A stretch of 64,000 bases of DNA from Moniliella sp. 'wahieum' (lineage: Eukaryota). The number at the start of each line of letters is the position of its first letter. Position 1 is the first letter of the stretch. Under the pieces are notes generated by a model, which saw only the letters and a program-made list of their open reading frames with translations, was not told the DNA's origin and did no database searches. A program made the translations under genes and the position numbers. Below are positions 6,780-51,630 of the stretch, in pieces. The stretch spans positions 186,001-250,000 of the forward strand of contig RSEE01000088.1 in the NCBI GenBank assembly GCA_003971905.1, read 5' to 3'.

Positions 6780-7051
6780 TGTTGGCCTAGGGAGCCTGAC
6801 GGACAGAACGATGAGGAGAATAAAGCGATGGATTATTGGAGCCAGAGTTGGGTCTGGGTAGTACTGAAGATGAGGCATCTATATATAGGAGGCCGGACTG
6901 GACACATGGCCAGTGAGGTACACAGGAGAGGATGCACAGGGACAACAGTGCCACACGCTGGGACGATACCCGCAGCGTGGAAGCCGACGATGGAACCGGG
7001 CGAACCTGGTCTACCGCCTGGGAGCCGGAGGATCATCGATCACAGTCCACA
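6780..7051 (-). mobile_element. Diverged solo LTR of the TRIM-like family at 11873 and 49094
   Basis: Aligns by eye along its full length to the young ~237-bp LTR (TGTTGGCCTAGGGAGCC...CACAGTC[A/C]ACA); perfect 5-bp TSD GGTTG at 6775-6779 and 7052-7056. Confidence 0.9.
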
Positions 7052-11238: not shown

Positions 11239-11288
11239 CGCGTGCGTATGCGTATGCGTATGCGTATGCGTATGCGCATGCGCACGCG
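11239..11288 (+). repeat. (TGCGTA)n microsatellite in the 3' flank of the B56 gene
   Basis: Direct tandem repeat. Confidence 0.85.
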
Positions 11289-11872: not shown

Positions 11873-14741
11873 TGTTGGCCTAGGGAGCCGGACGGGCAAA
11901 GGATGAGGAGAAGGTGATGGATTGGAGCCAGAGTTGGGTCTGGGTACAGAGGCATCTATATAGGAGGCTGGACTAGGCACAGGGACAGTGAGTCACAAGG
12001 AGAAGTGCAGGGCACAGGGACAGTGACACGCAGGGACGTCAGCGTGGAAGCCGATGGAACCGAGGCGAACCTGGTCTACCGACTGGGAGCCAGAGGATCA
12101 CAGTCAACACCCCCGCTGGCCAGGGAACCCGGAGACATCGGTTTGGGATGAGCTCCTGCCAGTGGATGTAGAGAGGGGAGGACTTGAGTGGCAACCGGGA
12201 CGAATGGCCTGGAGTTGTGCATGGCCACACGACTGGCCTACACCCCGCTGTCCAGGATGACACCTGAACGAGCCGAGCGCTTGTGGTTGGTGTATTGTGC
12301 GACCGCCAGATGCTTGTAGAAGTCTTAGAAGTAAAAGTAGTAGGGGTTGCGCCCCGAAGCGATTTGGTGGGCAAAAGTAAAAGCACCAGTTATAGGTGTA
12401 GTGAAAGAAAATTGGAAACTTGGAGTAAATGCGGTCCAAGGTCGTTTGGCATCAAAATTGGATGCGTTTGGTAGTTGTTTGGTTCCGCATGCCTGGTGCC
12501 AGGGGGTCCATTGGGCATGGGAAAGAACGGGCGCTATGCGTCAACCGTCTTGATCTGTTTGGGTTCTCTTTGTTGTTGAAAAGAGGAGTGGAAGAAGTTG
12601 GGTGACCACCCCCCCCCCCATCCTTTCCCCAGGTGCCCCGGATGAATTGGCAATCCGGGGCGTGTAGCCGTGGGTGGGGCACTTGATGAGCAGCCACCCC
12701 CGCTTTCTGCGATTCGCCTGCGCCGTTTTGTCGTTGGAGGAATTTCGTCTCGTTGACGATACCCGACACGTTTTGTTCCGTCGTGTGTTTCCCTAAAAAT
12801 CATGCCCCATCTGTGGGGGACGAGTGTGCCGATTGTGGCGGTAGTATGCCGATTGTGGCGGTAGTATGCCGATTGTGGCGGTAAGGTGCCGATTGTGGCG
12901 GTGGTGTTTGTTGGGCGGAGGACGGTGTGTGTCTTGTGGGCTTGCGGCTTAGCTTGGGCTTGTAGGCTTGGGGGTGGGCTTGCTTGAAGAGCGCTCCCCT
13001 TCCGGGGGATCAGATTGTAGCTCTGTTGGCCTAGGGCCGGACGGGCAGAAGGATGAGGAGAAGGTGATGGATTGGAGCCAGAGTTGGGTCTGGGTACAGA
13101 GGCATCTATATAGGAGGCTGGACTAGGCACAGGGACAGTGAGTCACACAGGAGAGTGCAGGGCACAGGGACAGTGACACGCAGGACGTCAGCGTGGAAGC
13201 CGATGGAACCGAGGCGAACCTGGTCTACCGACTGGGAGCCAGAGGATCACAGTCAACACCCCCCTGGCCAGGGAACCCGGAGACATCGGTTGTGGGATGA
13301 GCTCCTGCCAGTGGATGTAGAGAGGGGGACTTGAGGGCAACCGGGACGAATGGCCTGGAGTTGTGCATGGCCACACGACTGGCCTACAGAGTTGGGTCTG
13401 GGTACAGAGGCATCTATATAGGAGGCTGGACTAGGCACAGGGACAGTGAGTCACACAGGAGAGAGTGCAGGGCACAGGGACAGTGACACGCAGGGACGTC
13501 AGCGTGGAAGCCGATGGAACCGAGGCGAACCTGGTCTAACCGACTGGGAGCCAGAGATCACAGTCAACACCCCCGCTGGCCAGGGAACCCGGAGACATCG
13601 GTTGTGGGATGAGCTCCTGCCAGTGGATGTAGAGAGGGGAGGACTTGAGTGGCAACCGGGACGAATGGCCTGGAGTTGTGCATGGCCACACGACTGGCCT
13701 ACACCCCGCTGTCCAGGATGACACCTGAACGAGCCGAGCGCTTGTGGTTGGTGTATTGCGACCGCCAGATGCTTGTAGAAGTCTTAGAAGTAAAAGGTAG
13801 GGGTTGCGCCCCGAAGCGATTTGGTGGGCAAAAGTAAAAAGCACCAGTTATAGGTGTAGTGAAAGAAAATTGGAAACTTGGAGTAAATGCGGTCCAAGGT
13901 CGTTTGGCATCAAAATTGGATGCGTTGGTAGTTGTTTGGTTCCGCATGCCTGGTGCCAGTGGGGTCCATTGGGCATGGGAAATGAACGGGCGCTATGCGT
14001 CAACCGTCTTGATCTGTTTGGGTTCTCTTTGTTGTTGAAAAAGAGGAGTGGAAGAAGTTGGGTGACCACCCCCCCCATCCTTTCCCCAGGTGCCCCGGAT
14101 GAATTGGCAATCCGGGGCGTGTAGCCGTGGGTGGGGCACTTGATGAGCAGCCACCCCCGCTTTCTGCGATTCGCCTGCGCCGTTTTGTCGTTGGAGGAAT
14201 TTCGTCTCGTTGACGATACCGACACGTTTTGTTCCGTCGTGTGTTGTCCCTAAAAATCATTGCCCCATCTGTGGGGGACGAGTGTGCCGATTGTGGCGGT
14301 AGTATGCCGATTGTGGCGGTAGTATGCCGATTGTGGCGGTAGTATGCCGATTGTGGCGGTAGGTGCCGATTGTGGCGGTGGTGTTGTTGGGCGGGAGGAC
14401 GGGTGTGTCTTGTGGGCTTGGCGGCTTAGCTTGGGCTTGTAGGCTTGGGGGTGGGCTTGCTTGAAGAGCGCTCCCCTTCCGGGGGGATCAGATTGTAGCT
14501 CTGTTGGCCTAGGGAGCCGGACGGGCAGAAGGATGAGGAGAAGGTGATGGATTGGAGCCAGAGTTGGGTCTGGGTACAGAGGCATCTATATAGGAGGCTG
14601 GACTAGGCACAGGGACAGTGAGTCACACAGGAGAGAGTGCAGGGCACAGGGACAGTGACACGCAGGGACGTCAGCGTGGAAGCCGATGGAACCGAGGCGA
14701 ACCTGGTCTACCGACTGGGAGCCAGAGGATCACAGTCAACA
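11873..14741 (-). mobile_element. Non-autonomous mini LTR retroelement (TRIM-like), tandem array: LTR 11873-12109, internal 12110-13023, LTR 13024-13258, partial duplication 13259-13569, internal 13570-14501, LTR 14502-14741
   Basis: LTRs end TGTTG...CAACA; 5-bp TSD AGGGG at 11868-11872 and 14742-14746; G-run polypurine tract next to the LTR on the minus strand; no recognisable gag/pol ORF. Confidence 0.93.
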
Positions 14742-16114: not shown

Positions 16115-18849
<2,735 letters not shown>

Positions 18850-37953: not shown

Positions 37954-39657
37954 TCAAAAGTGAGGGGCGTTGAGAGCAAGAAGCAACATCAGACCAGCCA
38001 GCAACCCTGCACAGGGCAGAGTCAATACCCAGCCCACAAAGATCCAGAGCAGCTGGCGCCAATTTACAGCGCCCAGGTCGTAGTTCATCAAGGCGACACC
38101 CATGGACGAACCGACGAGACACTGCGTAGTGGATACAGGCAGGGACAAGCGCGATGCAAGCAGGACGGTGATGGCTGCTCCGAGTTCAACAGAGAACCAC
38201 GGGAGGGCGACATGCGGGTGATCTTGTTGCCGAGAGTGCGAACAATGTGGTAGCCGTAGAACCAGAACCCGATGCCCAGCAACAGACCGGCCACGACCAA
38301 AAACCAAACGGGGGTGGTTGACTCGGTGTCCACCTCGCCAGAAAGGTAGGTGGCGTACACGGCAGACCAAGGCCCCACTGCATTCGCCACATCGTTTGAG
38401 CCATGCGCGATGGACATCATCACTGCAGAGACCACTTGACAGTAGGTAAACAAATGCTCCACCCTCCCATCGTACTCGGCTGCCTTGGAATGGATCACAT
38501 CCAGACGCTCAGACTGGTGCATGACCACTTCCCGTGTAACCCCTTGCAACAGCCCAAACTTGAGGTACCCCCACGTCTTCCGAGGGTTTGACCAAGCCAG
38601 GTGCTTGACTGGACCAATAAAGCGCTCGTACGGTTCGACCATCTTGGCCGGCTTGGGTTGGGAATCGAGATGAGCCACCGTCACTGGGCGTTGTTCCAAA
38701 TCGTTGTTGTTGAAGTCGGACTTGACCGAGCAGATTTCGTCTTCCACGTCATATTTTTCCCCACGGATGACGGTGGAAGAGCGTTGCTGATGGGGCGTGG
38801 TTGTACTGGGTGTTGGTGGTGGAGCCTGGGAACGGGACCCACGGGTCTTTTTTCCACAAAAGAGGGCCGAGAGGTAAGTGCCAAACCTGAATGCGCTCAT
38901 CTTGAAGGACCAGGCGTCGGTGTGCATACGGAAGGAAAAAGATGTAGGCCAACAATAGGCAGCCGCCAAAGACCCCGAGAATGGTACCAACAGTTTTGCC
39001 AGTCCCAAACTTTTCCAAATCGCCTCCCACCGTGGGGGCTTCAATGGTAAGAAACAAGGCGAGAATGCCGCCTGTGATGGCCATGTATAGTGGAGCAAGC
39101 CGCATGGCCCATTTGAACGGGTCCTTGCGTTCCAACAGAGTGTACTTGATCACCCCAAACACGATTGCCGAAAAGCCAGCGGCAATGCCGGGTGCGATGC
39201 CCCACGACGCGGCGATTTGTGTCACACTGCCCTTTTTCCACTCCCAGTGGATCGACGCTTGGGACGCAAGGCCCACCCCACACAATGCCCCTACAATGGT
39301 CTGGGTCGTGGACACTGGGAAGCCCAATGCAGTCGAAAGGATCAACCAAATCGCACTGCCCACCTCGGCACACGACATGGCCAGCATCAGCGGGCCTGGG
39401 TGGCCCGTGAACCGGTCAATGTCAATGATTCCACTCTTGATGGTGCTAGTGACACGGTCACCCAGTGCGACGGCACCAATGAACTCGGTGCAGGCAGCTA
39501 GGAGACCCGCTTGCCACATGGTGAGCGTGCGTGCAGCGACCGAGGTAGCATACGAGTTGGCCACATCATTCGCGCCGTTCCCAAATGCGCTAGCGGTAAA
39601 GGCCAGGGTGGTGATTGCCAGGATCCAGTCGTACTTGGCCGTAACTGGGGGGATCAT
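37954..39657 (-). CDS. PHO89: PiT-family Na+/phosphate symporter (Pho89 / Neurospora PHO-4-like); frameshifts
   Basis: Two PiT signatures, 'GNGANDVANSYATSV' and 'SIAHGSNDVANAVGP'; 'PVSTTQ' occurs twice. Confidence 0.95.
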
Positions 39658-42109
39658 TGTGGCGGGAAAGGAGATAGGTGTGTGGGTCGATGGTGTGTAG
39701 ACTGGTATATATCCGAGAAATGCCGTATGAGGAGGAGGTTTTAGTATAGAGGGCATAATCGCCAATGGCCCAGTATCCTTCATTTTGTTCAGGGCTCTGT
39801 GACCAAGGAAACGATGATATGAAGCAAAAGCACGTCTTAGGGGTGCGATGGAGGGAGCAACTGGCTCAGGTACAGAGCCAAAAACTGAGTGAGTAACTGG
39901 CTCTCAGGCACAGCCAAAAGGGTCGCAACATGTGCTTGACGAGAAGAACAGAGCATTATGATTTTGTGCATGCGAATAAGGAAGGAAGGTGGAGAGTAGG
40001 ACACTCGACGCATGTTCAAGGCACATTAGTGTGCTCTATGAGTTGCCCTCACAACTCTGTGTGTATTGGTATACCCGCTCCATCACAGCCCATTCGGCCC
40101 TGCCAAGATATTATTGCTCGGTCTGCCAAGATATATAGGCTGGTCTGCCAAGCCTGGTTTTATTGCCTAAGCGCACGTGGCCAAAAATTATAATACGCCG
40201 GGATAGGGTTAGAAATCAAGTCGCGTCTTCGGCGATTGATGGTGTGGAGCAAAAGAGGAATGCGATAAAAACGCCAAGTACAACGGACGCAACACTCAAG
40301 AGCTGTTGATCCCGTTGGTCATGCCGATCATGTAGTAGGTCATGAAGACGCGTGAATACTGAATCGTGAATGCCATATGCCACCAAGACGTCGTCCATCA
40401 TCGATCATCGATCGATTCATTACAACACAAGATTTTCAAGAGCACCGGGGCTTTATAGTTCTCTGATGCGCGCCTGCGGCAACCAACCCCTCCTTTGATT
40501 TGTCATCCTTTCTACACCCCTATTGAATCCGCTTTCCCTTTGCCTATACCCCTTGTTGGTGGGGATCATTTACCCACCTTCCATTCTCGTCCCTTATCGC
40601 CTTTCCTGTCCAACTCCTGTGCCCGTTTCCAACCAATTGATTCAGTAAAGAGGACATCGTCTCCACTCTCATCTCCACTCTTAACTGCTTCCTCATTTCC
40701 TCACATCCTCCAGTTTTCCATCCGCCCAGTCGCCCAGTCGCCCGAGCCTTCCTTCAGCCGCGTCGATTCCCCGTAGCAGCTTATCGCGTGGGTTCCTTTC
40801 CAGCCACGTCGACAGCCGCCCCTGTCCACAGCCTCCGCTCTGGCAGTGTTTGGCCTCCTGTTGGGACACTAGTGCGGTGTGCCAAGGGCACAGCTGGATT
40901 CTGGCGCTCCCAGCCCCTTCCATCCAGCAGCTAGCTCCGCTAGTTCCGCTCGGACGGAAATGTGGCTGCCCGACATGCCTCCTTCTAGAAGCCTCGGCAG
41001 TCGTATAGCTCTTAGTCTTCCCTCTCTTCCACTCCCTCCTCCTCCTCCCTCTGCGCTATTCTCTACTATCGCTCACCAGAAGCAATCAATCCCTATCGTC
41101 TATTGACCTCCAGTTCTTGATTGCCGCCTTCCTTGGCATCGGGATCCGGTCACATCACTCCACATCCTCAACCCGTCTCTAATAAGCCCCGCAGCTTCAG
41201 AGACCTTACTACTGCCGAAGACCGAGCATACACAGTCTTGCCACACGTGCAGCCGCCTCGGCTTCCCGCCCAAAGGCCTCTCCTCGTCCCTAGCTCCGCT
41301 CGGATCCACCAGCTAGCTCAAGCACAAAACTACCGTTCTGACGGTCTCCTACGGGATTGTACCCCACAAACCTGGGTGATCCCCCTGGAGGGGAACGCCC
41401 ATGACGATCCCATCTCACCAGTCGGGGCTAAAGCGAGAGAGAAACCAGTAGAGTCGAGACTAGGTCGAGGAATGCAACATGCAATCCCTCATCTTCAGTG
41501 CATCCGTGTGTCGAGGCAGTTGATCATCATCTTCATCTTTTACAGGGAGACCGCGTGTGTGGTTTTGACATCCTCCCAGATCAACGCCCAGATCTGAGAT
41601 GCATCATCAGTGTGCCACAAGCGTCCAACTTTGGTTCAATCAATAATGCCACTTGACTCTGGGGTGGGCGCTGGGCAAAGATACAAGTGATTAACGTACC
41701 AATAAGATGTGATCTATGATTGCCGATTGTCTCTCCTGTTGGTCACACGCAATGTCACATGTGACATGTGATGTCACGCTCTTGGGGAAATTCGCTCACG
41801 CTTGACGGGTGACGCAAATAAGCGACCGGGACCAGGGTCCAAGTGGTTAATGACTAATGACGTTAATGACTCACTCATGCGTCACGCGTCATTAGCGCTT
41901 AGCCACCGGTCACCGCATCATCGATCATCGATCACTTCGTCACCGATGATCGGATCATCGACCAATGGATCACCGATTGCTAGCATCACTCTCAAATCAC
42001 AGCCAAATCACAGGATCCAAAAAAGATTAGGGGTTCAATTAATGCATTTCTGAATAGAGCAGGCGCTCGCGTTTGCGCCAGAACACCGCGGGGTAAATCC
42101 AGCGCAACT

Positions 42110-42407
42110 TCACGCGCTCGAGGACGACGACGGGAAGGGGGAGGGGCAAGGAGCGCTGCAAGAGTTAGTCGTTGCCCCCAGCCAAACGAAAAACGAGTAA
42201 GCGAAACTTGGGCACGCCATGAGGTGGAAACGTCGAAAGACTTCTGGGGCACAAGCGATGAAAGAGAGTTAGTACACGATGGACAACAGCAACAGGATGC
42301 CAAGAACGTACCAGTGTGCATGGCCTTTGGAGCTGCAAGTGCACAGAGAGGGAAGACAAGTTAGCTGAAGAACAGGGAGCGCGTGGAATGGGGACGGTAC
42401 CGGCCAT
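42110..42407 (-). CDS. Candidate micro-exon microprotein, MAAPKAMHTEVFRRFHLMAAPCPSPFPSSSSSA (33 aa); coding exons 42407-42401, 42332-42312, 42243-42216, 42155-42110
   Basis: Three GT-AG introns (42400-42333, 42311-42244, 42215-42156), each with a CTAAC branch point, join into one open frame; a further upstream intron at 42705-42605; ATG has A at -3; TATAAAAA at about 42792-42785. No homology could be checked. Confidence 0.6.
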
Positions 42408-44460
42408 GATGTTAAGGATGGTCGTCAAGGTGTTGGCCACGGATGATTTGGGAGGTTGTGGGTAACACGCGTGGCTCAGGACGTGGTAGAAGCTCTTGAT
42501 TCCCAGTTGGGGTGTCGATTTGGATCCGAGACGACGCTGGCGATGGGCTTGGAGATGCTCGCGGCGACATTGAGGATGATCTTGACCTGCGACGGTCTCC
42601 CAACCTGGCAGAAGAGCAGGCAGACAGGGTGAGGGTGTGTTAGTATACTCAGTCCTGGGCTCGAGGGGATGTGCGAGACCACAGGTGGGGGATAGGGGAA
42701 GGCACGTATCCAGAGGAAGGTTGGTTGTTTGCTGGGAAGGATGGTGGTGGGAGGGGGACGGAAGCGAACCTGGGGGGGGCGGGCTTTTTATATCCACGTT
42801 TCCTAGGGGCATTTAGGCATGTATATATTCAGGCTGCCGATCCCTGCGACGGAACGCTAGCGAAGGCCAGCAGCACGACACTGTCACATTCCTCTGGCGC
42901 TGAGGCAGTGTTACTTTCCGCCATGCTCGAGCGGAATGCCCAGGGCAATGCCCTCTCGCGTCGCGTTCTGAAAAGCTACAGAGTGCTCTCAACTATGGTA
43001 TCCGCACTCCTGCTCCAAAAGACGAAGTGGCATCCCTTTGAAGCAGCAACGCCTCCTTTGGCCCCAGTCTGGGGGCCTCAAACTCAGATTCACAACTGAT
43101 CAGCAACCACCCACAGCTTATGAAAAGAAGATGATATCAGACCCATAGCAACTCCGGTATAGAAGTACTGCTCTTTGCAGCAGCGTGTGTGTTGCGCATT
43201 CTACTTGTTGGCACTAGATTACAGGAAGAGCTATCGCCTATAGTTTTGCGCGGAATCAGTAACGTCGATGGTATTGAACAGGGAGCCTGCTAGGGTGGTG
43301 TTGCATAGCCTCGATGAGCCATACAGAGAATTGGTTTGATGGAGCCGAACATCATAAGTCTTTTTGCCCGTATGACCATAGTTGCTGTTGAAAGGAAACA
43401 CCATTATATAGTGAAAGAGATATGGGATGGTTGGTATATATTTACAAGGGATACCGTAGTATTACCAAGACTTCCTCCCTTTTCTGCTCTTCACTACGAG
43501 CCATTATGGTGTGAAGGCCTCGTATTCTTCCCAATAATTAATGGAAAGTATGAATCAAACCTCATATGGGGCAAGCGCCTGTGCTTCCCAAGATAACATT
43601 GACGCCCATGTCGACCAATGCCCCTCCGCAATATATATGTGGTTGTGTGGAAAGCCTGAGCCCCCCACCCCTCCTGCACAACAGTCTATTTGTGCATAGT
43701 GTATGAAAGCTATCCATATGTTGTGAAGCACTGTGTGCATGTACATGTTCCCAAACATGATCCACTGATTCTCGAAAAATGCAGAAGATGCAAGCTATTC
43801 AGACTTCTTCTATTGGCCATCAGCTTCCAGCTGAATCCCAAGACTGAATATTGATTGTCTCGTTTCCCCGTTGTGATGAGTCTCGGGCACTTAGTTTAAA
43901 GATGCATCTGCGTTTCACTCGCTATAGCTACTCACTCTCTGAACTTACAAAATGACATACTAGTCTCTGTATAACGTCTGTATACCATACACAGTTGGTG
44001 TTCTGGCATACGTTGATATCTCTTTTCTAGCATACACATGCGTGCGTCTCGCTAGTTTTTGTATCAAATATCTTGCTTGTCGTAACTCACTACGAACAGT
44101 TGCCTCTAACATGGCCATGGTGTATATAGGAAACGGCATAGTACAGGAGGAAGCGTACACTTTGGCCATAAGTTTTGGTGACCGACATGGTGGTGAGAAG
44201 AGTCCGAGTCCCACTCGGCGTAGGCACGCCGTCTGCATCCATGGCCATCGACTTGGGTGTAGCACATGCCGGTATCGACTTGGATGTATCTGCTCCACTT
44301 GTGCATATCTGCATGGGCACATCGCATGGACCTTGGCGCATTGCACGACTTGTGTGTTTTTGTGCGTACTGCATAGGCTTGCGCATATTGCACGGACTTG
44401 TGCGTATCGCATCGACTTAGCGTACAGAGCCGCGCCCACGATGCGCAGCAGCACCACCGG

Positions 44461-44569
44461 GCGCATCACCCAAATGCTCACCGCATCCGCCATGCAGCAC
44501 CGGGCGCATCACCCATTGCTCACCGCATTCGCCAGGCCGGCGTTGCGCATCACCCAATGCTCACCGCAT
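44461..44569 (+). repeat. Three copies of a ~25-bp direct repeat, GCGCATCACCCAW(A)TGCTCACCGCAT, with a period of about 42 bp
   Basis: Copies start at 44461, 44504 and 44545. Confidence 0.85.
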
Positions 44570-46709
44570 GCAGCTGCCCGTCGTGTGTCTCAGATGCCCA
44601 CGCGCGTACATATTTCGCAACCCCCCGCCCAGCTGAGACACCCCCTCCCAGTGGGCCACTGTCCAGCCCTATCCCGTTCAATTTGGCCGGGGTGGTTGGT
44701 GGACCCTGGATTTGGCATACTGTCCCCGTGCCCAGGCGTCACCCGTCAAGCGTGAGCGGATTTCCCCAAGAGTGTCACGCGTCAAGTGTCACACGTCACG
44801 GTGCAACAATACAGCCTGCAGGTGGCTTCGTAACGCGTAACGCGTATAAATGGGGCCGGTGTTTCGTGCGGTGTCGAAGAAAAAAGGGCTCTATAGCCCT
44901 GGTGTGGGATGGCTGCGGCATTTCGAAGACGTGTGACTAGTGACTTTCGAAGATATACGCCTTCTGAGATCTGACCTCGATCTGACCGGTCACCGGTCAC
45001 CGGTCACCGGTCACGGGTCAACTTCAAGTGGCCGGTGGCCGTTTCACAGTCCCATGCGCGGCCCATTGCATTGGTGCGTGTATCCGTCAGTCGAGCAGTA
45101 CAGCAGTACAGCAGTACAGCAGTACAGCTACAGCACAAATGATCGAAATGATCTCAACAGTACAAAAGTCGCAAGATGGTTGCTTGTCCTACAACCTGGC
45201 GGAGCCTGGCCGAGCGCGTTGAACATGTCGAACGTTGAAGTTGAAGTTGAACTTCAAAACGTTGAGCGCGCGCTGAGCGTGAGCTGTAGCAATTAGTAAC
45301 TAGTAACTACGGCTCGTGCGCGTGACGCGTAAGCGTAAGCGTAACGCGAACGTTTATATGTTTACCGTTTACACCTTAAAAACGTTTAACGTGGTCGATT
45401 TCCGTGTGGTACGCCGTCACGCGTCACACGTCACGCATCACATGTTACATGTCACCGGTGTCACCGGTCACCTATCATTAGATCACTAAATCATTATCAT
45501 TTCCCCCTCGCATCGAAGCAGGAGGCGTGCTGTGTACTGCGTAACGCACTGGATGTGTGACGTATCACATGCACATCCCATGCGTGATACATGGTACGTT
45601 GTACACAAACCCAAAACCTGATGGCTTGGAAAGCGATGTATGTAAAAAGAGAACACACGTCTGGGCCTGTCGGGGCTGTCATGCATGTCATGGCTGTCTG
45701 GGCCTGGGGAGGTCAGGTGGAGAGTATCGTATGGCCCACACCGGACATGTTCGGCGGGTTATGGATCCTGCCCGTACGGGGAAGAGAAACAGGCAGTGTG
45801 TGGCATGTGAAGCTTGAAGTGTGAAGCAACTGTGCAGAGCCCGACGAGTGACTGATAGGACCGCGGCCTAGCGAGCGTTAAGCTTGAAGCTATGTCAGTG
45901 AGAGCGCGCATGATGCTTTTGAAGCTTGAAAAGCTTGAAGCTCGAAGCCTTGGAATCTTAGGCCTTAGGCATTAGGTCTTAGGTCACTAGTCACTAGTCA
46001 CTACCCAATACCCAATACCCAATACTCAGTACTCAATTGTACTCACTTGCTTCTTGAAGCTAGCTTGAATCAGAACTCGAAGCTTGAAACCTGAGCCTGG
46101 GCGTGAAGAACTTGAAGGTTGAACGTTGAACGTTGAACGCGCTGAACGGTTGGGGTCTGAACGTCTGAGATTCTGAGACGTTGAGGTCTGAACGTCTGAG
46201 AGTCAGATCGTTGAACGCCCTCAGCTCCTGAGGCCTGAGGTCCATGAGGCGCGACGGCCGGCGCTGAATGGGATACACAATGTGGATTACATGTGTCACA
46301 TGTCCCCGGTTACATGTTACACACAGGTTACAATGCGCTGTACAGGTTACAAAATGCGCTGTGAATCGTATAGAATTAAATATCGCCTCCCTTGCGTAAC
46401 GCGTAACAGGTCAGACAGGGCCAGGACAGAGGGAGGGGAGAGGGGGGGATGGAGAGAGAGCCTTGGAACAGAAAACGATTAGAGTACGAGACAATATTGC
46501 CAGGGTGAGAGGCCTCAGACGCGGGCAGTTTGTACGACCACAACTTGATGCGGTAAAACAAATGTGCCCTAACCCCGCCCCCACCCAAGCCCCCTCCGTT
46601 GTGCGTTGCCCAACTTAGCCCATCGAACCCCGCTAGTCCAGTACAGGAACACATTGCACCCCGGCTGGGAACGAGGCACCAAACCGGAGAATGAATGACC
46701 TCCTCCGAA

Positions 46710-48354: not shown

Positions 48355-49093
48355 GGGGGCGAAGGAGGAGTTGGAGGGAACGAAGCAACGCGGAGGCACG
48401 GAGAGCGGGCAGAGGGACGCGTGTGGCTGCTCCGGCCGGATACGCGGCCACAGCAGCGCCCAGCAGGCCCAGCTCAGGCTCATCTGAGCGCTGAGTACGG
48501 CAGGCGCACCCGAGCACGGCCCACAGACGGCCATCAATCACCGGTCGCCGATCATCGGTCATCGATCACCGGCCAACTGGGACTGCCGGGGAAGATGGGC
48601 CTGGGGAGCTGTGCGTGAGGGTGATGTATGACGCGATGACGTGTGATGGGTGACATGTGATGCATGATGAAGGAGTAGTCGCTGATTGGGACTTGTCGGT
48701 ACCGAGTCAGTAACTCAGGACTCGGTCCCGTACGTACACTGCAGTACACGGCCTAGGTAGGTAGGTACTCGGTGACGAGAATGACTTGCAGCTTCAAGCT
48801 TCAAGCTTCAATACACACAGGGTACGGGGTCCGAAACGGCCAGGGACGGCGCGATGTATGAGACACTGCAATGATTAATGACTTGAAGCTTGAAGTTGCG
48901 CTTGAGTAGCTAGGGACAAACACGCGTCACCGTGTCAGGCATGTCACATGCCACATTGACTGGGATGATCGAGATGATCGATTATCGAGTAAGTCGATTC
49001 AGCTTTAAGCTTTAAGGCCTAAGATCTAAGATCGATTAAATATTAGGATGTTGAGATCTGAGATTCGTTGTTAGACGAGGTCGATGAGGCCGA

Positions 49094-51630
49094 TGTTGAC
49101 TGTGATCCTCTGGCTCCCAGTCGGTAGACCAGGTTCGCCTCGGTTCCATCGGCTTCCACGCTGACGTCCCTGCGTGTCACTGTCCCTGTGCCCTGCACTC
49201 TCTCCTGTGTGACTCACTGTCCCTGTGCCTAGTCCAGCCTCCTATAGATGCCTCTGTACCCAGACCCAACTCTGGCTCCAATCCATCACTTCTCCTCATC
49301 CTTCTGCCCGTCCGGCTCCCTAGGCCAACAGAGCTACAATCTGATCCCCCGGAAGGGGAGCGCTCTTCAAGCAAGCCCACCCCCAAGCCTACAAGCCCAA
49401 GCTAAGCCGCCAAGCCCACAAGACACACCCGTCCTCCCGCCCAACAACACCACCGCCACAATCGGCACCTTACCGCCACAATCGGCATACTACCGCCACA
49501 ATCGGCATACTACCGCCACAATCGGCACACTCGTCCCCACAGATGGGGCAATGATTTTTAGGGACAACACACGACGGAACAAAACGTGTCGGGTATCGTC
49601 AACGAGACGAAATTCCTCCAACGACAAAACGGCGCAGGCGAATCGCAGAAAGCGGGGGTGGCTGCTCATCAAGTGCCCCACCCACGGCTACACGCCCCGG
49701 ATTGCCAATTCATCCGGGGCACCTGGGGAAAGGATGGGGGGGGGTGGTCACCCAACTTCTTCCACTCCTCTTTTTCAACAACAAAGAGAACCCAAACAGA
49801 TCAAGACGGTTGACGCATAGCGCCCGTTCATTTCCCATGCCCAATGGACCCCACTGGCACCAGGCATGCGGAACCAAAACTACCAAACGCATCCAATTTT
49901 GATGCCAAACGACCTTGGACCGCATTTACTCCAAGTTTCCAATTTTCTTTCACTACACCTATAACTGGTGCTTTTTACTTTTGCCCACCAAATCGCTTCG
50001 GGGCGCAACCCCTACTACTTTTACTTCTAAGACTTCTACAAGCATCTGGCGGTCGCACAATACACCAACCACAAGCGCTCGGCTCGTTCAGGTGTCATCC
50101 TGGACAGCGGGGGTGTAGGCCAGTCGTGTGGCCATGCACAACTCCAGGCCATTCGTCCCGGTTGCCACTCAAGTCCTCCCCTCTCTACATCCACTGGCAG
50201 GAGCTCATCCCACAACCGATGCTCCGGGTTCCCTGGCCAGCGGGGGTGTTGACTGTGATCCTCTGGCTCCCAGTCGGTAGACCAGGTTCGCCTCGGTTCC
50301 ATCGGCTTCCACGCTGACGTCCCTGCGTGTCACTGTCCCTGTGCCCTGCACTCTCTCTGTGTGACTCACTGTCCCTGTGCCTAGTCCAGCCTCCTATATA
50401 GATGCCTCTGTACCCAGACCCAACTCTGGCTCCAATCCATCACCTTCTCCTCATCCTTTGCCCGTCCGGCTCCCTAGGTAACAGAGCTACAATCTGATCC
50501 CCCCGGAAGGGGAGCGCTCTTCAAGCAAGCCCACCCCCAAGCCTACAAGCCCAAGCTAAGCCGCCAAGCCCACAAGACACACCCGTCCTCCCGCCCAACA
50601 ACACCACCGCCACAATCGGCACCTTACCGCCACAATCGGCATACTACCGCCACAATCGGCATACTACCGCCACAATCGGCACACTCGTCCCCCACAGATG
50701 GGGCAATGATTTTAGGGACAACACACGACGGAACAAAACGTGTCGGGTATCGTCAACGAGACGAAATTCCTCCAACGACAAAACGGCGCAGGCGAATCGC
50801 AGAAAGCGGGGGTGGCTGCTCATCAAGTGCCCCACCCACGGCTACACGCCCCGGATTGCCAATTCATCCGGGGCACTGGGGAAAGGATGGGGGGGGGTGG
50901 TCACCCAACTTCTTCCACTCCTCTTTTTCAACAACAAAGAGAACCCAAACAGATCAAGACGGTTGACGCATAGCCCGTTCATTTCCCATGCCCAATGGAC
51001 CCACTGGCACCAGGCATGCGGAACCAAACAACTACCAAACGCATCCAATTTGATGCCAAACGACCTTGGACCGCATTTACTCCAAGTTTCCAATTTCTTT
51101 CACTACACCTATAACTGGTGCTTTTTACTTTTGCCCACCAAATCGCTTCGGGGCGCAACCCCTACTACTTTTACTTCTAAGACTTCTACAAGCATCTGGC
51201 GGTCGCACAATACACCAACCACAAGCGCTCGGCTCGTTCAGGTGTCATCCTGGACAGCGGGGGTGTAGGCCAGTCGTGTGGCCATGCACAACTCCAGGCC
51301 ATTCGTCCCGGTGCCACTCAAGTCCTCCCCTCTCTACATCCACTGGCAGGAGCTCATCCCACAACCGATGTCTCCGGGTTCCCTGGCCAGCGGGGTGTTG
51401 TGACTGTGATCCTCTGGCCAGTCGGTTAGACAGGTTCGCCTCGGTTCCATCGGCTTCCACGCTGACGTCCCTGCGTGTCACTGTCCTGTGCCCTGCACCT
51501 CTCCTGTGTGACTCACTGTCCCTGTGCCTAGTCCAGCCTCCTATATAGATGCCCTGTACCCAGACCCAACTCTGGCTCCAATCCATCACCTTCTCCTCAT
51601 CCTTCTGCCCGTCCGGCTCCCTAGGCCAAA
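49094..51630 (+). mobile_element. Second insertion of the TRIM-like element as a tandem dimer: LTR 49094-49330, internal 49331-50246, LTR 50247-50483, internal 50484-51395, LTR 51396-51630
   Basis: Near-identical to the reverse complement of the 11873-14741 units; TSD GCCGA at 49089-49093 and 51631-51635; G-run PPT before the 2nd and 3rd LTR. Confidence 0.93.

Follow-up and report, generated by a model that had tools for sequence, protein, structure and literature searches.

The interval 42110-42800 of this 64-kb window (the whole stretch of DNA that was analysed) raises the question of whether its minus strand carries a spliced gene, and of what kind that gene would be. The content of the window is fungal, with RhoGAP, B56, Brix, PKA regulatory subunit and DUF7082 genes and a GC content of 58%. 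The original prediction placed in this interval an unannotated gene of four introns and very short coding exons, upstream of the phosphate transporter gene PHO89, and suggested that its product or its transcript may be tied to phosphate homeostasis. The splice and promoter signals, the reading frames and the position relative to PHO89 each bear on a different part of that proposal.

Splice-type and promoter-like signals

The building blocks of the prediction are present in the DNA. On re-reading the sequence, TATAAAAA, the four GT..AG candidates, their branch motifs and the exon lengths were all found at the predicted positions. Listed in the direction of the minus strand, the signals are as follows.

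42785..42792, minus strand: TATA box (TATAAAAA), a putative core promoter, read in the sequence
42706..42780, minus strand: C/T-rich tract 3′ of the TATA box, read in the sequence, where transcription would start
42605..42705, minus strand: candidate intron 1, 101 nt, with the weak donor GTGCCT, the branch motif TACTAAC and a CAG acceptor 34 nt past the branch motif
42333..42400, minus strand: candidate intron 2, 68 nt, with the weak donor GTACCG, the branch motif GCTAAC and the acceptor TTGCAG
42244..42311, minus strand: intron 3, 68 nt (GTACGT ... TACTAAC ... CCCCAG), the sole fully consensus intron of the four
42156..42215, minus strand: candidate intron 4, 60 nt, with the weak donor GTGCCC, the branch motif GACTAAC and the acceptor TTGCAG
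42156..42311, minus strand: alternative to intron 4, in which its sequence forms the 3′ end of a 156-nt intron from the GTACGT donor at 42311

The dense splice-type signals of this region exceed chance. A CTRAY branch motif followed by YAG is found in 4/4 candidates, in every case as CTAAC with a CAG 8 to 34 nt past the motif. Of the CTAAC motifs in the 64 kb, 16 are on the plus strand and 25 on the minus strand; four of these 25 minus-strand copies fall within the 621 nt of the putative unit, as do two of the five minus-strand copies of TACTAAC in the window. In 5000 dinucleotide-preserving shuffles of the local 621 nt, four CTAAC motifs were reached three times, and four CTAAC+YAG modules were never reached; the maximum was three modules, in nine shuffles. 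When a 620-nt frame was slid over the 64 kb, the only positions with at least three CTAAC motifs lay within 42850-41781 of the minus strand; the plus strand had none. The candidate introns (101, 68, 68 and 60 nt) are all inside the fungal range of 42-529 nt given in PMC5677156.

A second signal lies at the 5′ end. TATAAAA is present as a single copy on both strands of the 64-kb window, at 42792-42786 of the minus strand, and this copy sits 80 nt 5′ of the first candidate donor. Since the window holds one copy against 1.14 expected for its whole length, the placement of that copy directly 5′ of the CTAAC cluster, on the same strand, is notable. The GC skew at 42400-42800 is strongly positive on the plus strand. 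The CTAAC+YAG cluster and TATAAAA are two independent signals, and the case for a real Pol II unit rests chiefly on them.

The donors were compared with published fungal introns. Among 2022 introns from four Fusarium species, 93% have G and 1% have C at position +5 (PMC5677156), and the same source quotes G at 94% for introns of N. crassa. Against this Sordariomycete consensus, one donor of the four has G at +5 (GTACGT at 42311), and GTGCCT, GTACCG and GTGCCC have C. Intron 3 fits the consensus of PMC5677156. For the first acceptor (42605), the only donor with G at +5 is GTTCGC at 42769, 16 nt past the end of the TATA box. For the second (42333), exon A offers, on a reading of its sequence, no such donor except GTTGGG at the first bases of the exon. 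A search for an internal duplication of exon-intron units found none. Judged by the sequence signals, splicing would take place at least at 42311-42244; use of the acceptor at 42156 instead would yield the 156-nt intron. The two modules whose acceptors end at 42605 and 42333 may act as weak splice sites or as alternative ones.

These observations bear on the possibility that there is no gene at all and that the motifs coincide, without function, in a C/T-rich intergenic stretch. The three non-consensus donors of the four agree with such a coincidence, and so do two results set out below, namely that every frame is without a homologue or family and that the codon scores overlap those of other intergenic segments. 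The failure of all 5000 composition-keeping shuffles to reach four CTAAC+YAG modules speaks against it, together with the window's lone TATAAAA directly upstream on the same strand and the one fully consensus intron. On balance, we consider the absence of any gene unlikely.

The sequence just beyond the putative unit has features of its own. Dense motifs resembling transcription factor sites (ATGTGAC x2.9, TGAGTCA, TGACGCA-like and AACGTCA-like) occupy 41740-41900, just 3′ of the unit, and may be regulatory. Heptamer repeats of the GATGATCG type lie at 41910-41977, just beyond the 3′ end of the unit, at 40396-40416, approximately 740 nt 5′ of the PHO89 start, and at 48539-48569, just 5′ of the DUF7082 ORF; the last of these is 91% identical over 32 nt to approximately 41904-41935.

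Reading frames, coding potential and homologues

Three elements of the minus strand are relevant to whether the unit could encode a protein.

42412..42570, minus strand: 52-codon upstream ORF (uORF), of low complexity and rich in Ser and Pro, with its stop 4 nt before the ATG at 42407
42405..42407, minus strand: ATG with A at -3 and G at +4 in the context CTTAACATCATGGCCG, from a reading of the sequence
42039..42155, minus strand: last exon, whose top frame by codon usage has 38 codons plus TAA and differs from the predicted frame

The fungal start-codon (Kozak-type) consensus makes the context of ATG 42407 favourable. From this ATG, the original prediction joined minus-strand exons of 7, 21, 28 and 46 nt into a 33-aa peptide; they do join in frame, and re-translation gave the same peptide. 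The uORF of 52 aa, from 42570 to a stop 4 nt before ATG 42407, was also confirmed on re-reading. Its codon score of -0.01 per codon and GC3 of 0.49 are non-coding-like.

Codon scores were computed with a table trained on 4189 codons from the Pfam-supported genes of the window, on a strand whose richness in C inflates every frame. With that caveat, the last-exon frame 42155-42042 scores 0.26 per codon, over 37 codons, and has a GC3 of 0.84; intergenic stretches of 38 codons reach at most 0.22, and the in-frame range is 0.18 +/- 0.15. For the predicted frame of the last exon, the score is 0.21 per codon, from just 14 codons. In a six-frame scan of the gene-poor 6.7 kb at 39900-46600, 3/5 of the best coding-like segments are in the unit, on the minus strand, and the last-exon frame ranks fourth among the coding-like segments of that scan. 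Other intergenic segments of the same 6.7 kb score 14.3, 10.1 and 9.3, and the codon scores of the unit are within their range. Inside the 204-nt exon, the best frame also switches without an intron, with f0 leading at 42784-42527 and f2 at 42512-42375, which argues against a single clean coding sequence.

The weight of an in-frame ORF depends on how many could be built. Spliced ORFs were enumerated by taking any GT as a donor, acceptors only where preceded by CTRAY, and ATGs in 42760-41900; these rules allow 12,106 spliced ORFs. Because so many are buildable from the same signals, the in-frame 33-codon ORF carries no weight. An ad hoc score that adds donor quality to the codon score places a 70-codon model first of the 12,106, among ORFs that start at or downstream of 42760. 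This model, which would best fit the signals, runs from ATG 42407 through exon 42407-42312, intron 42311-42156 and exon 42155-42042 to a stop at 42041-42039. A single long coding sequence from ATG 42812 (205 aa, one intron) was rejected: the TATA box lies inside it, its best frame changes and it has no homologue.

Searches for homologues covered both proteins and RNAs. In Pfam, the six frames and ORFs of the unit gave only sub-cut-off matches at E up to 10 (Agd3_C 0.035, DUF3558 0.1, DUF6020 0.2), and Rfam 15 gave no match to either strand of 40000-45000 at E up to 1. Against a collection of 5.8 billion proteins, a 215-aa read-through ORF had 256 word candidates among proteins of 118-377 aa, none with E <= 0.01. 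In the same collection, the uORF frame had seven candidates within a restricted length range, none significant, and no protein of 28-91 aa shares three 5-residue words with the predicted frame. The last-exon frame found one match in 1.84 billion representatives of any length, a 570-aa tandem-repeat protein aligned over nine weak stretches, which we regard as spurious; it found no usable match in the ESM Atlas and a best E of 1.6 in the PDB. Metagenome contigs scanned with the 215-aa ORF gave 248 pattern matches, of which none was confirmed, and the 64-kb window was searched for a paralogue of the unit, with none found. Two specific identities were also discarded. A likeness of the N-terminus of the unit to the ribosomal protein eL39 found no support: no ribosomal family appeared in the six frames and ORFs (Pfam, E up to 10) and no ribosomal chain among the PDB matches. 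A snoRNA host gene was set aside in view of introns of 60-101 nt, the lack of an Rfam match and the fact that no C-box (UGAUGA) was noticed in exon A.

A gene of exactly four introns, micro-exons of 7, 21, 28 and 46 nt and a 33-aa microprotein is, on this evidence, extremely improbable. In its favour, an open frame runs across the joined exons from a well-placed ATG to a stop, and 4/4 of its branch motifs and acceptors are of good quality. It depends on three donors that have C at +5, each of a type that accounts for approximately 1% of the 2022 Fusarium introns in PMC5677156. It is one among 12,106 possible ORFs, and the C-terminal part of its peptide is low-complexity Ser/Pro, with no protein of 28-91 aa having three 5-residue words in common with it. 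What survives of the predicted gene is a putative spliced minus-strand unit, backed by the CTAAC+YAG and TATAAAA statistics. The micro-exon coding sequence is disfavoured by its three C-at-+5 donors, by the absence of a homologue in the searches above and by the higher score of another last-exon frame.

The same combination of strong 3′ splice modules, poor donors and a best coding frame that switches without an intron is what a decayed, intron-rich small gene would leave behind, if its branch and acceptor signals persisted while donors and frame eroded. The lack of a conserved intact ORF is consistent with such a pseudogene. Neither a parent family in any frame (Pfam, E up to 10) nor a paralogue elsewhere in the window was found; we regard this origin as decidedly unlikely.

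Position relative to PHO89

Downstream of the putative unit, the minus strand encodes a PHO4-family (PF01384) transporter, recognised in two ORF pieces (E 1.7e-53 and 3.7e-33). This agrees with the prediction of a PHO89 gene on the same strand, and the likely ATG of PHO89 is at 39657 of the minus strand. The unit (42800-42040, minus strand) is approximately 2.4 kb 5′ of it in the same orientation. Two further sites are relevant here.

41244..41249: CACGTG, reading GCACGTG on the minus strand and lying between the unit and PHO89
40174..40179: CACGTG, reading GCACGTG on the plus strand and lying within PHO89's own promoter, adjoining TATA-like sequences at approximately 40130-40195

GCACGTG is the consensus reported for the factor NUC-1 of N. 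crassa, and an earlier study described in the same source found two NUC-1 sites in the pho-4 promoter (PMC12506109). The GCACGTG sites at 40174 and 41244 match this Neurospora consensus (PMC12506109).

The original prediction also drew attention to a CACGTT beside the TATA box. The window holds 64 CACGTK sites against 72.7 expected, and at least 64 were reached in 78 of 100 shuffles; there is no enrichment. Because the CACGTK count is at chance level, the CACGTT next to the TATA box means nothing by itself. A tie of the putative unit to phosphate would draw on its position and on this chance-level CACGTT and nothing more, and is unsupported.

Conservation beside other phosphate transporters, which the prediction had proposed to look for by tBLASTn and synteny, gave no help. 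When metagenome contigs were scanned with PHO89, 33 fungal loci were found, with identities of 55-73%, and of 82% on one short contig. Blastn of 39700-46700 against the 33 loci found nothing at E <= 1, and tblastn of the frames of the unit against them had a best E of 0.27. The flanking DUF7082 and steroid dehydrogenase genes are not beside these 33 PHO89 copies (best E 0.78 and 7.3, respectively). The loci thus contain no recognisable unit and differ from the window in gene order; they are too distant to serve as evidence against conservation.

In S. pombe, the upstream RNAs prt, prt2 and nc-tgp1 lie 5′ of phosphate-acquisition genes. By analogy, a tandem upstream regulatory transcript would cross GCACGTG 41244 and 40174 and repress PHO89 in plentiful phosphate. 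Like the S. pombe units (PMC7470944), the one described here is 5′ of a phosphate-acquisition gene in the same orientation, at approximately 2.4 kb, with a putative TATA-box promoter. In both cases, the downstream gene's transcription factor sites separate it from the upstream unit; here both GCACGTG sites are between the unit and PHO89, a geometry that fits the model in PMC7470944. The promoters of the S. pombe PHO lncRNAs are two-part, combining a TATA box with a HomolD box that lies 15-30 nt 5′ of it (PMC7470944). Unlike them, the present unit has no HomolD box near its TATA box, as no CAGTCACR was found on the minus strand near 42800-42830 with one mismatch allowed; the HomolD element may, however, be peculiar to S. 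pombe. The unit also carries intron signals, whereas PMC7470944 does not present the S. pombe lncRNAs as spliced, the words 'spliced' and 'intron' being absent from that review. A transcript of this type would further have to cover approximately 1.9 kb from the last splice acceptor to the PHO89 promoter, CACGTT beside the TATA box is no commoner than chance, and the PHO89 copy carries a frameshift. Repression of this kind therefore appears very unlikely. The broader proposal, in which a spliced upstream RNA, with or without a micropeptide, would run from TATA 42792 across GCACGTG 41244/40174 and tune PHO89 by tandem transcriptional interference, is by the same analogy highly improbable.

The transporter gene itself is disrupted in this assembly. 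At 38196 of the minus strand, a 1-nt deletion separates the conserved motifs ...SPSRG and FSVELGAA..., and the two halves of the gene overlap by one base in different frames. Among 31 related loci with both transporter halves, 27 have them contiguous in one frame with a 0-nt gap, and four have gaps of 68-121 nt. Either an indel introduced in assembly or a recent mutation that inactivates the gene accounts for the frameshift at 38196.

Repeats occur at several other places in the window. Between the unit and the DUF7082 gene, 44770-46360 (approximately 1.6 kb) contains many different adjoining short tandem repeats with units of 6-9 nt in 2-13 copies, among them ACCGGTC x5, AGCAGTAC x4.4, TACCCAA x5, GAACGTT x4.7 and TGAACGTC x12.8; many of the units contain GTCAC, ACGT or GTAAC. 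A family of repeats of approximately 410 nt, 96-98% identical, forms two clusters of opposite orientation approximately 35 kb apart, on the plus strand at 11929-12337, 13079-13800 and 14559-14741 and on the minus strand at 49094-49274, 50018-50428 and 51168-51574, with a weaker copy (77% identical) at 6843-7035. A GTATGC microsatellite is found at 11246-11275. Repeat matches spaced by 6 nt extend over approximately 150 nt at 16322-16469, overlapping an ORF with a weak MFS/sugar-transporter match.

The putative unit and its meaning

The reading that best accommodates these observations is a small, lineage-restricted Pol II unit on the minus strand, at roughly 42750-42000. Transcription would start in the C/T-rich tract 3′ of the TATA box at 42792, the exon structure would differ from the predicted one, and the mature RNA would be either non-coding or a template for a short orphan protein. 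This reading is backed by the cluster of CTAAC+YAG modules, the lone TATAAAA, one consensus intron, the context of ATG 42407, the coding-like segments and the rank of the 70-codon model. It is weakened by the lack of a homologue or family in the searches made, by C at +5 in three of the four donors, by ordinary codon scores and by the frame switch. We hold such a lineage-specific spliced transcript with about even confidence.

Several known systems offer a comparison. Like the orphan small spliced genes and lncRNAs of filamentous ascomycetes, the unit is short, lacks homologues and a long conserved ORF, combines a TATA box with a C/T-rich promoter, and would have short introns with CTAAC branch sites. 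It is unlike them in the unusual density of its intron signals, with four modules in 0.55 kb, and in being known from sequence alone. Highly expressed fungal genes, such as those for ribosomal proteins, habitually begin with micro-exons. The unit would start like a ribosomal protein gene: its first coding exon would comprise just the ATG and 4 nt, its 5′ leader would contain introns, and its putative promoter is C/T-rich with a TATA box. Unlike in those genes, its frames match no ribosomal or other family (Pfam, E up to 10).

For gene models, the locus holds a lesson with two sides: a dense cluster of branch motifs and acceptors genuinely argues for a spliced unit, and an in-frame micro-exon ORF assembled from freely chosen GT dinucleotides is no evidence for a gene. 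Unannotated, species-restricted spliced transcripts are common in fungal genomes and are little informative alone. The unit, if transcribed, would be one more of them, and would gain importance only if transcription from it ran as far as the PHO89 promoter. We know of no report of PHO control by an upstream lncRNA in a filamentous ascomycete. Should transcription of the unit extend as far as the PHO89 promoter, phosphate control by upstream lncRNAs of the fission-yeast type would be extended to filamentous fungi.
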